Below, piece by piece: positions 24,001-30,000 of a DNA stretch of 42,950 nt (position 1 is the stretch's first letter; every line of letters begins with the position of its first letter). Made by a program: the position numbers. This stretch comes from a virus. Taxonomy: Duplodnaviria; Heunggongvirae; Uroviricota; Caudoviricetes. Where the stretch lies: IMG/VR virus record IMGVR_UViG_2778261513_000004, one strand, 5' to 3'.

Positions 24001-27000
24001 CAGATATTGTTCTGCGGCATCACTCAGGGCTGGCGTATGTTCCCGGCCGACCGAGTCACACAGATAATCAACGAAACCGGACACAAGTTTTCGTTCACGA
24101 GAGGTGATCGCCCCACCGACAGGAGTCCAGTAATCGAATCCGAGTTGCAGGAGTTTGAAAAAACGCTTGTGAAATGCGTAGTTACGAACGCGCTTAAAAT
24201 CAGCGTGTATCCACTCACCTATTTTTATTTGATGCAAGAATTCGCAACTCTCCGGTGTTGCCGGGAGCAGTAATCCAGAAGAGGTATGTTTGATCAGTTG
24301 TATATGTGCCATCGGCTTTCTCCGGTGGCACGGTGTTACTCAGCAGGGGGTCAACCCTGCGCTGAATTGTAGATGAGTTCAATCGTCTTCAAAAGCAGAA
24401 AAGCCAGCTTTTAATCCAATTTCTTTTAATGTCCGTAATGATGTGACAAATTCATCTTCACGCAACATAAATCCGTCCGTCACATGCCCATTCAAGAGAT
24501 ATATTAACATAGCCCCACTAGGCTGTTGCAAAGCCCGTGAGCAATGAATGCAGTAACAACTAATAATTTCCCCATTTTCAACGCGCACAGCATAGAGACC
24601 ATCTTTATTAAAAATTTTGCGCAACTTCTTGAAATCCATAAACAGAAATTTTCCAGATTAATAGCGTTCCCCTGAAGGGTCCATCCCTCTTCTCCCTGCG
24701 CGCTAACTAAGCAAACACGATTCTATTTACAACAGTCAGTCCCTCAAGACTTACTGCTAAAAGAGTACACAAAAAGCTAATTTCTCCACCACAACAAAAA
24801 ACCCGCCGAAGCGGGTAAGTACGGGTGCGTTGAGGATGCCTGACACATCAGAGGTGGCGGGGGATTTCTCCCCCGCCGGGTCTCTTACTCCTCAGGTTCG
24901 TAAGCTGTGAAGACAGCGACCTCCGTCTGGCCGGTTCGGATTCGTACCTCGCAGAGGTCTTTCCTCGTTACCAGTGCCGTCACAACGACGGTTAAACAGA
25001 TGACGATCAGGGCGATTAACATCGCCTTTTGCTGCTTCATAGCCTGCTTCTCCTTGACCTTTTGGTCGGTAAGAGGCTAATCTACGTATGCAAAGCATAG
25101 ATGTGGCCTCAGATTAATGTTAAGCGTCTTGCCGGACGCGTAATGTTAACTGGGGCTTTTCTCTATCTGCCTTTGGTGTTCATGCCCGAGGCAGACAGCC
25201 TCAAGCACCCGCAGCTATTCTACTTAACTCCCGTTACCTCGCCAATATGAAATCAATCAGAAAGGTGATCCATAAGAACAATAGCAAGACCATAGATTGC
25301 CATCACAAACGCAATAGCCAGTGCACATTTCGCAACCAGCACGTTAACCTCCTGCATTTGACACTCGCATATGCTGATAAATATGTGGATGTCTCACTGG
25401 TGACTCAATAAAACTATTTGGTGTACTTATTCTATTTTTTCTGTGCAACACAACAAACCGTCATCACCAGCACTTCCTTAAATGCGCTAAGTCAGACACA
25501 AGCCAACATTTTAGTCCGCTTTGAGCGAAGAGCAGACATTGCGAAGAACAAAGTGGTAATATGATTCGGATGGTCACGTAATATTGATGCAATGAAGTTA
25601 AGTAATTTCAAGCTGGATAATTTTACATCTGTTCTGATAAAAGAATTCAATAATTAAGTATTTAAACACAATCTTCATTTCAGTCTATTAAATCTGAGGA
25701 GCTGTAAATTAAACACTTACTTTTCGATGAATACCCAATACAGTTCAAAGAGAAACTTGCTCAAAAATATCTCAGCCTTGAATTTTAAATTGAATGGTCG
25801 CACCGATTTTTCGAGAAAAAGATTTGATAGTATACTGTTTACATGATATCAACAATAATCTATTGATTATTACACAAAAAGCTCCTTAAGCATGGAGCTT
25901 TTATGTGATGCAATGAATTAATTCGAATTTAAAGAAGTTAAAATACGTCTATAATAATTAATTGTTGCTCCAGAAAGATAATCACCAGGAGCTTCAGAAA
26001 AACTTGATAATGCTATGGTTTTAAATAAATTGTTGTTTTTTGTCTCACTATTTCCTATTTGATATTGTTTATAGAACATATGCGTAACTTCGAGTACGTA
26101 TGACTCAAAAGCATGACCTTGTATTAAATAACCAGGGTGAGAATAAAATGGCTCATGCAGAAATAATAAGGCACATCTGCTTTCTTGTGTATTACCAATG
26201 TTGAATCCTTTCCATTTGGATTTTAATCTTTGTATACACTCATCTTTAATTATTAATTCCCCATCTCTTTCATGAAAAAGGATACCACATAATCCATCAA
26301 GATTAAACATTGCCATGTTATTAATTCTGGATATAAGGTTCAGCTTATGTATATATGCAACCTTTCTCTCAAGTTTCTTCCACTTATTTATAAATATGTC
26401 TACATCATCATTATTTGGGCAAAATATTCTTAGTATTTTCTTTAATAGTGCCGTTGTCCATAAATCGTTCTCAAAACTATATCCATGTGTAAAGTGAACA
26501 AAGTTATATAGCTGATCATTAATACCCAATGCTTCATTATGATCACGATCCATAAATACAATGTGATTATTTTCCGTATGCTGGGTTCCATTAATCCTAG
26601 CAGCAATCTGCTTTAAATTCTCTTTTCCACCTTCTATTCTAATTTCATAACGACCATCTAAGTAATTTTTTAACAATGCATTGTAGAAGATATAATCAGG
26701 AAGCTTTTTAATATCTGGGCTATTACCTTTACCTTCAACATGAACAATATAAGATACATCTCTCAACAGAGATTCAGCAATCAAACCTGCCGGCGTTCTT
26801 GATATGAAGTTAGCATCCATTGTTATTTATACCCTTATAGCCGACTCTCTTCTTCTCCCTATAATATCAGGAGAATGAGTAGCTAAAATAAATTGAGCTT
26901 TAGGATTTATCTTTACCAAAGCGTCAACAATTTTATCCTGCCACGTCACATGTAGCGAAACCTCAGGTTCATCTGCGATATATATAATATCTTTATTATC

Positions 27001-30000
27001 ATTCAAATAGATTTCTCCGAGTAATATAATCATTTGCTTTTCACCAGAGGATAACTTGTCAAGTCCTATTGTGCCACCTTCAGTTCTCATCACAAGTTCG
27101 TTTTTCTTCGATAATAGAAGAGTTTTTCCATTTTGGAAGAACATTCTAAAAACTTCAAAAAAATCATCTCTACTTCTGAATATTTCAATTTTCTTCTTTT
27201 TGAGAATCTCATAGTCTGCAATTAAAGACCTTGTCCTCCAAGCATTATACATAACACCAAAATCAGTTAAAGACATTGGCCCACTGCCATCACGTTCTGA
27301 AACATCTTTAAGACGTTTCAAATAATAATCCAGTCGACTACTATCATAATTACTTTTATTTTCATTCATAAACGAAAGCATTTCATGCAAGGAAGAAGCT
27401 TCTTTTTCAATATCAATTTTACTGTTAAATTCGAATATCGAATTTTCGCTCGGAACATCTAATAATTTATTAAATATACTTTTTTGAAAATTACTTGCTA
27501 TTCTATTATATGCCTGAGACTGCCTAGAGAACTTACTTATTAAAGCGGATTTAATTGCGTTTAGCTTTTCATCAACCGGATCACTGCCTTCATTATTAAA
27601 ATAATCATGTTCGTCATTATCACCTCTTCCCTTTCTTGAAAGTGGAATCAGGCTAAGTTGTGATATTTTAGATACCATAACTTTTAGTTCCATTACCCTT
27701 CCTTCAAGCAAAAAATCATATTCGTCATTACTTAATTCATATTCAGATATAACGCCTTGCTCTGTATATATGGAATAAGTCATATTTCCATCACCATTTT
27801 TCGCGACCATTATTACATGATTTCCATATAGACTAACAATAGCTCTTGAAAATGACAGCAAATACATTTGCTTGACATCCACTGAAAGCAAGGCACAGAT
27901 GATGTTAATAACAGTAGTTTTACCTGCACCATTTGACCCAATCAGGAAATTCATGTCTTTGTTAAAAGACAGTGATATATCTTTATACCCCCAGATTCCC
28001 CACGCCTTAAAAGAACTTATTTTACTCATCTTTCATCCTTTAGTTAATGTTCACCATAAATATCGTTATCGGTTACTTTGCCTGAACAGTTATAAAAACT
28101 CAAATTGAAGATGCTCTTTTTCTGGAAATATTTTAGGGTAAACTGATTGCAACCAGTAATAGTTGCTGACCTTACTACCAGCATCAGGATTTTGGTCATA
28201 TCTAAGTATGCATATGCTTTCCCAAAAGATACCGATACACACTAATGAATCGGGACGTTATGGCACATAAATCAGAGAAGGAGGTTTGTTGTCTCATAGC
28301 CCCCAATTTTGGGGGACAGGTTTGAAAATAGTAGAGAAAAGTCAGCGTTGACCTGGCTCCCTAGGATAGCCCATAGATTACTAAACAGTTCGTGGTATCA
28401 GAACACAGTAAAATCTGAAAGTCGACAAGAGCGAAAAGCAGAAGTGATATGTGTGAACGATGAAATAGCCAGCTAAAAGAATGACGACCAAAGCAGTGAC
28501 GATTCAGACGTCCGTTCCTGGCACGAAGCGGACAAGTTACCGGAGCTGAAGATCCGCTGTGAGCGAGAAACGGAAGTTGGTTTGCTGGTAGCAATCTAAA
28601 AGTGAATGGTCCGGTTAAGTTGGGCGTTTACAGTTACTCGGCAAACTACTCCAGCTTGATGAATAAGTATTTTTAATAAATTTCAGCCCGCGATGCCGCG
28701 GACATTCATACGGGCTGTTATATTACCAGATTAAGGTGTCACTAAAGGTGTGGTGTGGCTACCTATCACGTATTCTTTCAGAAAAAGACGTACTTCTGAT
28801 TAGAAAGGAATATCATCGTTCTTAACGGCATCATCAGAGATGAGAGCACCTGTTGGCAGAGGTACATTACTTACAGTATATAAATTAAGAATGTCTTCCC
28901 GGTCCATAAATATTATCTGGCTTCTTTTGCTGGCATCAAGTTTCCCGCCCAGCCAGTTCCTCGCCTGTTTAGTAATTTCTCCGCCAGCAACGATAAAGGC
29001 ATGATCTACCAGCACCTTTCTATTTGTTTCTGGGTCAAATATTTCATGACCAAGCATCATCAGTACCTGGTTGAAGATTTCTGCCACGTTTGAATTCGTA
29101 GATTTGCTGGCACCGGACGCATCCAACTTACCTTTTTTTGCCTGAATGCCGAAATAAAGAACATGCTGAGTTGGCAGTGTGAACTTCATCCAGATGTCTT
29201 TCCCGTATTCCAGCGCTTTATCTTTATGTCCCACTGCTGTTATCCGGTGAAAACCAAGTTGCCGGAATAAAGGAAGGAGAATATCTTCTATTAACTCATC
29301 TTCTGAGCAGGTATCAAGAAACGCGGTCAGTAACCTTCTGCATTCTACTTCGTGAGGCGTTAAGGGGCGATGAGGGTTATTACTGACAGAAACCGTTTTG
29401 GTATCGGTATGGCGTATATACAAAAGGCGATCGTCACCATAGAATGCCTCATAGCCTTCCCGCATCAAAGGCTTGTTCAGTTCTTCAAGCGCCTTTAATC
29501 TTCCTGGATCGTCATCCATTGCATCTTCTTTTAACATTAAAGTTCTGAGCACATGAACAAACCTTTCCGGCAAAGTATGTGGCTTTGACTGTGGCTCATA
29601 AAGAAGTTCTTCAAGCCTCTGGGCCGTCCATTTCCACCGAGTTGATCCGTCATGAGTAACATCCATGCCGCAGTCCTGGAAAAATTCAGTGATGTGGCTG
29701 CTTGAACGATACAGAAATGCCTTATTATCTCCTATGATACATTCCGCGAGAGCCTTGAGGTTTTTGTCCTTAAATTTCATGTGTAATAATCTCCCCCTCG
29801 TTTAGAATATAGAATTAATTGCAGGCACCGCTTGTTCGGGTGACTGTTAGCGGTTCACTACTCATTACCACTTATTCATACAAAGAAACACCCGAGGCAG
29901 TTGTTGGACAGGTATAAGTGGCGGAACCTTCATACATTAAGTGTCTCCCCATCATAATGGTGTCAAAACGTCACGGCAACAGGATTAACAAACTCCCGTT

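Follow-up and report, generated by a model that had tools for sequence, protein, structure and literature searches.

To which family does the ABC ATPase and Toprim gene pair of a lambdoid prophage belong, and how has it come to lie there? The pair is located in the IMG/VR virus record IMGVR_UViG_2778261513_000004 (Caudoviricetes), 42,950 nt of DNA that was analysed at its full length and is called the window below. An earlier note on this DNA, made from the sequence alone, had described the pair as a PARIS- or AbiL-like operon in an AT-rich island of the nin region, suggested its separate acquisition and allowed for its being a divergent variant of a described family. The two minus-strand open reading frames (ORFs) it reported, 6 nt apart, agree exactly with the ORF listing: an ariA-like gene at 26827..28029 (400 aa) and an ariB-like gene at 25918..26820 (300 aa), both with an ATG start. 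The pair is likely to be an abortive-infection system of the PARIS type (class 4 OLD-like), made up of two genes and belonging to a clade far from the studied system of Escherichia coli B185.

The larger protein, of 400 aa, is an ABC ATPase of the AriA type. All the motifs quoted in the earlier note are present, both in this protein (GSNGAGKTT at aa 31-39, LSSGEKQ at 326-332, IIYIADEPEVSLH at 348-360 and ILATHSPD at 381-388) and in the 300-aa one (YIVHVEGKG at 25-33 and FMDRDHN at 89-95). They go beyond chance, as the Pfam matches to AAA_21 (84 bits, 2.6e-23) and AAA_15 (68.4 bits, 1.2e-18) in the ATPase and to DUF4435 (1.2e-8) in its partner all exceed the curated cut-offs, and hidden Markov models and fold alike bear out the two domain assignments. 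The ATPase features comprise Walker A K37, the signature at 326-332, Walker B D353-E354 and H-loop H385; a helical insertion covers approximately residues 151-297, and a disordered acidic loop occupies 136-146. In the PADLOC scan the AriA model PDLC04164 came top of 128 ATPase matches (2.6e-41), PtuA being next (7e-27). The protein shares the AAA_15/21 fold and matches many PtuA models (about 1e-27 to 1e-14). A single-sequence search of the PDB also placed AriA first (3e-13), only via the Walker A and signature/Walker B segments. With a family profile of 46 homologues, AriA chain 8ux9_B was matched at 1e-29 and PtuA of retron Ec78 came next at 2.6e-13; this puts AriA 16 orders of magnitude ahead of the retron/Septu PtuA and was counted in favour of PARIS. 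The AlphaFold2 model (predicted local distance difference test score, pLDDT, 84.6) gave the same picture, the top 15 Foldseek matches in the PDB all being AriA chains (E 1e-18 to 6e-15, TM 0.59-0.66, 17-19% identity), followed by retron I-A PtuA at 6e-12. NCBIfam and PHROGs scans added nothing specific for either protein of the pair.

The smaller protein, of 300 aa, is a DUF4435/Toprim nuclease of the AriB type. Its DUF4435 match covers residues 42-163 (35.4 bits with a cut-off of 27), and residues 137-300 form a helical C-terminal domain. Only two PADLOC models matched it at E <= 0.1, both of them AriB (4.2e-9 and 2.7e-5), and AriB models were also matched by 55 of the 72 members of the wider family. 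An exhaustive search with a 25-member profile collected 551 clusters of relatives of about 290 aa. When the AlphaFold model (pLDDT 84.5) was compared with the PDB by Foldseek at E <= 1e-3, there were two matches only, both full length and both to AriB chains of the PARIS complex (TM 0.50-0.54, 13-15% identity). The AriB assignment rests on this fold and on the Pfam and PADLOC models; by sequence, the link to the PDB either failed or was weak.

Burman et al. (PMC11464382) named K39 and E393 of AriA and E26, D30, D88, E90 and E122 of AriB as functional residues, K39 and E393 being required for defence and E26 being essential. The catalytic residues expected of PARIS are found in both proteins of the window. 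In the ATPase, the residues aligned to K39 and E393 of B185 AriA are K37 and E354, both invariant in the 46 homologues. The acidic residues of the AriB-like protein are E29, D42, D91, D93 and E117. E117 aligns with B185 E122: the 72-member alignment lays T111-G-Y-S-F-E117-N-D over T116-L-G-H-S-L-E122-N-Y of B185 AriB. E29, D91 and D93 match E26, D88 and E90 by their order and by the 62-residue E-to-D spacing. E29, D42, D91 and E117 are invariant in all 72 members, and position 93 is D or E in 72/72. D42, which opens the helix following the E29 loop, would be the equivalent of D30, a correspondence inferred rather than aligned. N33 had been considered as a substitution of the D30-equivalent metal ligand and was rejected, because position 33 varies across the family whereas D42 is invariant. 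Two further correspondences are suggestive only: K31 (E29+2) stands at the place of B185 R28 (E26+2), an AriA-contacting residue, and K66 and K70 share the i/i+4 spacing of K60 and K64, which hold tRNA in B185 AriB (PMC12409363).

Rousset et al. detect PARIS by an AAA_15 score of at least 32 bits or an AAA_21 score of at least 27 bits, together with a DUF4435 score of at least 27 bits in an adjacent gene (PMC9122126). The locus passes this rule with 68.4, 84 and 35.4 bits, respectively, in adjacent genes. The genes are on the same strand with the ATPase first and a 6-nt gap between them, the same pairing recurs in all homologous loci examined, and the solved AriA and AriB structures are the closest to both models. 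The closest known system is PARIS of E. coli B185, found in a P4-satellite hotspot and represented by structures 8UX9 and 8V45-8V49; it is the best PDB match of AriA by sequence profile and of both proteins by fold. In both systems two genes lie side by side in the same orientation, the first for an ABC ATPase of the AAA_15/AAA_21 kind and the second for a Toprim protein with DUF4435 and about 300 aa. The Walker A lysine is kept in both, as are the Walker B glutamate and the acidic residues of Toprim, and the carrier is in either case a temperate phage or satellite, with the genes located in a variable cargo slot. Unlike the B185 system, the pair is carried by a lambdoid or P2-like prophage, not by P4, and identity to the B185 proteins is just 17-19% for AriA and 13-15% for AriB; the latter figure justifies the caution of the earlier note about a divergent variant. 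Eleven PARIS clades have been described (PMC11464382), and the pair probably belongs to a different one from B185.

In B185, PARIS is triggered by Ocr, a DNA-mimicking anti-restriction protein of phages, and targets the tRNAs of lysine (UUU), threonine (UGU) and asparagine (GUU). By analogy, the AriA of the window would build a hexameric scaffold which binds AriB monomers and holds them inactive (the B185 complex is 6:3). An early protein of the infecting phage would bind AriA, and an ATP-dependent rearrangement would free AriB. The freed AriB may then dimerise, with its two-metal Toprim site cutting the anticodon stem-loops of host tRNAs; translation would halt and the phage cycle would not be completed, resulting in an aborted infection. 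A trigger differing from that of B185 is plausible, if unproven, since the trigger-sensing pore residues are poorly conserved between PARIS clades (PMC11464382) and the disordered loop is acidic. Protective tRNA genes were looked for, and no tRNA gene is encoded in the window.

The pair is rare. It turned up in a single genome, Ecol_AZ159, of the 5426 complete E. coli genomes, and 50,697 phage records contain no DNA or protein match to it. The AZ159 copy, 96.5% identical over window positions 25513-28533, is located in a P2-like prophage between the tail-fibre assembly and tail sheath genes. More distant pairs with about 45-54% identity are found across Enterobacterales and always consist of a 400-aa and a 300-aa gene. 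The loci of homologous pairs that were examined are prophages: in Raoultella the pair adjoins the tail fibre genes of a P2-like prophage, and in E. albertii it sits between icd and a prophage integrase.

ariA and ariB form one compact operon under purifying selection. The minus-strand spacer between the ariA stop and the ariB start (26821..26826) consists of 6 nt, ataaca, read from the sequence (TAA-ataaca-ATG); the genes probably share a single transcript with coupled translation. An AGGA resembling a Shine-Dalgarno sequence is located 8 nt ahead of the ariA ATG. On the minus strand, a stem-loop followed by the U-tract UUUUGUGU (25874..25906) begins 12 nt past the ariB stop; with a predicted RNA fold of -16.5 kcal/mol (z -3.7 versus shuffles), it probably serves the operon as an intrinsic terminator. 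This stem-loop was absent from the output of the consensus terminator scan, in which the terminators were no better than chance. The non-coding region of about 480 nt upstream of ariA (28030..28509, minus strand) presumably holds the promoter; it travels with the cassette and is about 94-96% identical in the P2-like copy. A conserved regulatory element in the upstream region was considered and rejected, as the upstream regions of homologues with about 50% identity do not align. Between the pair of the window and its AZ159 copy (L001 12404-14515), ariA has accumulated 21 synonymous and 4 nonsynonymous substitutions, and with a ratio of nonsynonymous to synonymous rates (dN/dS) of 0.045 it is under strong purifying selection.

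Several observations weigh against the reading of the pair as a PARIS abortive-infection system. The DUF4435 score is not far over the cut-off. A phmmer search of the PDB with the 300-aa protein found nothing, nor did the 25-member close-clade profile at E <= 10; the 72-member alignment profile ranked AriB best, but only with an E-value of 0.089, a weak sequence link. The AriA-like protein has 400 residues versus 464 in the deposited B185 chain and is thus about 60 residues shorter. Its disordered loop is acidic (net charge -3), as it is in its clade, unlike its possible counterparts, the basic B185 pore loops which bind the acidic Ocr. The mechanism outlined above was transferred by homology from B185 PARIS (PMC11464382, PMC9122126, PMC12409363), a system that shares only 13-19% identity with the pair. 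The consensus promoter scan has found no promoter-like site above chance. Finally, ariB differs from its AZ159 copy by 9 synonymous and 16 nonsynonymous substitutions, giving a dN/dS of 0.44, with no invariant position hit; this excess could fit a relaxation of constraint as well as a diversifying pressure on the surface of the effector, and the counts are small.

One alternative is that the pair represents some other split ATPase and Toprim system of the OLD-like group (AbiL-, RloAB-, Old- or Gabija-like), resembling PARIS but with a nuclease attacking DNA, not tRNA. AbiL of Lactococcus (AbiLi/AbiLii), which has an abortive-infection phenotype, and RloAB of Campylobacter likewise combine a separate ABC ATPase with a Toprim/OLD-like nuclease. 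However, the 400-aa ATPase scores far higher on AriA than on any other model, and the 300-aa protein matches no AbiLii model in PADLOC and no RloB (PF13707) in Pfam, both at E <= 0.1; the sequence similarity between AbiLii and AriB was reported as not significant (PMC13064643). P2 Old (class 1 OLD) and GajA of Gabija (class 2 OLD) carry both domains in one polypeptide and act on DNA, whereas the window has two separate ORFs and no Toprim_Old (PF20469) match in Pfam. Gabija, in which GajA requires the UvrD-like helicase GajB, does not correspond to the locus either. Septu and the retron type I-A PtuA have the ATPase fold in common with the pair, but PtuA matches are at least 14 orders of magnitude weaker than those to AriA, the partner is a DUF4435 protein instead of the HNH nuclease PtuB, and neither a retron reverse transcriptase nor msr-msd is present. 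As the 300-aa protein matches AriB models only, without AbiLii, RloB or Toprim_Old, and has AriB as its sole strong fold match, the family, left undecided in the earlier note, is PARIS and not AbiL or RloAB; the reading of the pair in that note as a split ATPase and Toprim operon is supported. Every testable feature of PARIS membership is found at the locus, while AbiL, RloAB, class 1 OLD, Gabija and Septu each fall short in a defining one, and we regard another OLD-like system as unlikely.

The pair could also act mainly in addiction, as a toxin-antitoxin-like module by which the cassette or prophage is stabilised, with AriB as toxin, AriA as antitoxin and little or no anti-phage role. The PDB depositors labelled AriA an antitoxin, the cassette is mobile, its slot adjoins hok/sok, and related slots hold other toxin-antitoxin-like genes. 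A classical toxin-antitoxin system is nevertheless excluded for B185, since deletion of either single gene is non-toxic (PMC9122126); B185 AriB alone is just mildly toxic (PMC11464382), and defence genes dominate the other cargo of the slot, which makes such a module quite improbable here. Even less can be said for a decaying, non-functional remnant, passive in a cryptic prophage. The rarity of the pair, the dN/dS of ariB and the lack of a recognised promoter point in this direction. On the other hand, both ORFs are intact and full length compared with all homologues, every invariant catalytic residue is present, the dN/dS of ariA is 0.045, and another assembly contains an identical AriA and a 99%-identical AriB, proteins that stand for 23-25 member sequences; decay is a very improbable explanation.

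The PARIS pair is part of a larger mobile unit. GC content is 0.30-0.34 over 25501-28000 and 0.44-0.48 on either side, in agreement with the AT-richness claimed from the sequence. Compared with the related IPCEC31 prophage, about 3.0 kb are cleanly inserted in the window, with hokD on one side and the gene for a 326-aa protein on the other. This insertion, together with its recurrence at 96.5% identity in a P2-like prophage, confirms the separate acquisition suggested in the earlier note. Hairpin A, GTCCGC-TTTGAGCGAAGA-GCAGAC (25514..25537), bounds both the cassette and the whole cargo slot on the hok-proximal side, in exact agreement with the BLAST homology breakpoints. On the ren-proximal side, the boundary of the cassette, which is also its junction with the following one, is a composite (28510..28575) of hairpin B, GTCCGT-TCCTGGCACGAA-GCGGAC (28510-28533), an 18-nt spacer and a second A-type site (28552-28575). 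Homology to the P2-like prophage stops at 28533, and homology to the empty-site prophage starts again at 28553. Such a B+A composite also separates the cassettes of NADC1036 and those of IPCEC31. Of the 14-nt core TCCGCTNTGAGCGA, the window has exactly two copies, one at each breakpoint, and the empty site a single one.

In general form, the junctions are 24-nt hairpins, GTCCGC-N12-GCGGAC, with the type A loop TTTGAGCGANNA on the hok side and the type B loop TNNTGGCACAAA on the ren side. Viral contigs contain 38 of them, at cargo ends or between cargo units in 20 distinct slots (e.g., L002, L016 and L021), and the type A hairpin opens 20 distinct cargo regions; 168 kb of flanking phage DNA contain no such hairpin. 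Hairpins of types A and B also enclose the cargo that other P2-like prophages carry between G and FI. In phage P2 itself, fun(Z) is bracketed by the same two hairpins (loops TTTGAGCGA... and ...TGGCACA...), and this is the slot in which the AZ159 cassette sits. The slot of the window, in contrast, belongs to a Rac/Qin-type lambdoid prophage, lies between hok/sok and a ren-like gene and holds two tandem cassettes. The idea that the boundary hairpins are new was dropped: phage P2 has them, and a review (PMC8987985) credits Nilsson et al. 2004 with the inverted repeats around fun, to which the hairpins described here probably correspond. The cassette slot is thus already known for P2; what is newly added is the use of the same slot system by lambdoid prophages and the presence of the PARIS cassette in both. 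In AZ159, the cassette is additionally flanked by the 10-bp direct repeat GAGCGAACTG (L001 11985-12000 and 15015-15030), and it lies between palindrome arms (ATCTGACAGT / ACTGTCAGAT) which belong to the conserved P2 backbone.

The slot carries SIR2, AbiH, a retron reverse transcriptase-Toprim, PDC-S06 and PDC-S39 in related prophages, and elsewhere also several genes without assignment and some metabolic genes. Cargo sets without PADLOC assignment were noticed in slots L038, L089, L095, L111 and L087. They include a 269-aa protein, pairs of 340+333 aa and 417+379 aa and a three-gene set of 218, 415 and 192 aa; a further set, judged by eye only, resembles an adenosine deaminase with SIR2-like and Ham1-like proteins. 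These sets are candidates for undescribed defence systems.

A tyrosine recombinase of 200-225 aa (annotated as a site-specific integrase, of FimB/FimE size) is encoded between cassettes in L016 (7588-8190) and in the cargo of L021 and L044; there is none in the window. It could act on the hairpins or be a mere remnant. The prophage's own RecET, recombining the 24-60-nt conserved ends, would be an alternative to a dedicated recombinase. We propose, tentatively, that the unit from hairpin A through the cargo to hairpin B is a self-contained, integron-like defence cassette moved by dedicated recombination between two unrelated families of temperate phages, from the fun(Z) slot of P2-like phages to the hok-ren slot of Rac/Qin-type lambdoid phages or the other way, and that the pair within it represents a divergent PARIS clade with a trigger other than Ocr and a different RNA set; taken as a whole, this proposal is possible rather than probable.

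The 326-aa ORF mentioned above (28800-29780, minus strand) is located directly upstream of ariA. It has no sequence match in Pfam, PADLOC, PHROG, NCBIfam or the PDB. Its conservation is nonetheless extraordinary: its 3877 relatives are nearly all 325-328 aa long, and it is 70-75% identical to proteins of Vibrio, Vreelandella, Edwardsiella, the verrucomicrobium Ruficoccus, a cyanobacterium and an Omnitrophica metagenome-assembled genome. A few sources label the relatives as PDDEXK nucleases or restriction endonucleases, and the C-terminal half has GKDIW...IQAKKG. The gene occurs alone, with defence-type neighbours such as KAP NTPase, VapBC and HipA, and is present at 99% identity in 196 E. coli genomes. 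It was considered as a third PARIS gene and rejected, because neither the P2-like nor the E. albertii locus has it beside the pair and because it stands alone in those 196 genomes. The 326-aa protein is a candidate single-gene defence or addiction factor.

The surroundings of the cargo slot are those of a lambdoid nin region, as had been proposed: the pair is situated between a Ren-like/DUF977 gene (30200-30679) and the genes for NinB (23713-24312), a YbcO/HNH-like protein (23423-23713) and Q (22884-23426). The type I toxin-antitoxin locus hok with sok RNA (24885-25210, minus strand; Rfam, 105 bits) directly adjoins the slot. Beyond the Ren-like gene, which like the DicA-like repressor (33794-34252) is part of the minus-strand context of this region, a gene with a DnaT-like ssDNA-binding domain (31844-33121) takes the place of the replication genes; in the NADC1036 prophage the genes at this position are annotated as a DUF1376 protein and replication protein P. 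A second type I toxin-antitoxin locus, the RalA antitoxin RNA of RalR/RalA (41216-41394, minus strand; 197 bits), lies near the integrase end. Since the right end of the element comprises RecE, RecT, the RalA RNA and an IntR-like integrase, it can be recognised as a Rac-type prophage, and its backbone shares 98-99% identity with prophages from bovine E. coli.

Just downstream of Q, a second AT-rich island (21238-22495, minus strand, GC 0.35) codes for an ADP-ribosyltransferase resembling that of pertussis toxin (ArtA-like, 4e-75) and for an AB5 binding subunit of the subtilase type (ArtB/PltB-like, 1e-65). The island occupies the position of the Shiga toxin genes in Stx phages. It was found in three of the 5426 complete E. 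coli genomes, all three from cattle or buffalo.

PARIS has so far been dissected in essentially one representative. The pair described here does not change what is known of how such systems work. It lies near the limit of recognisability by sequence but has retained the complete fold and set of catalytic residues, and is for this reason useful for separating the general features of PARIS (scaffold, release, Toprim chemistry) from the variable ones (trigger, RNA targets). The cassette slot and the 326-aa neighbour deserve no less interest than the pair. The lambdoid cargo slot is now defined and can be mined for unassigned candidate defence genes, and the near-identical cassette with the same hairpins in a lambdoid and a P2-like prophage is a concrete, datable case of the passage of defence genes between unrelated phages.

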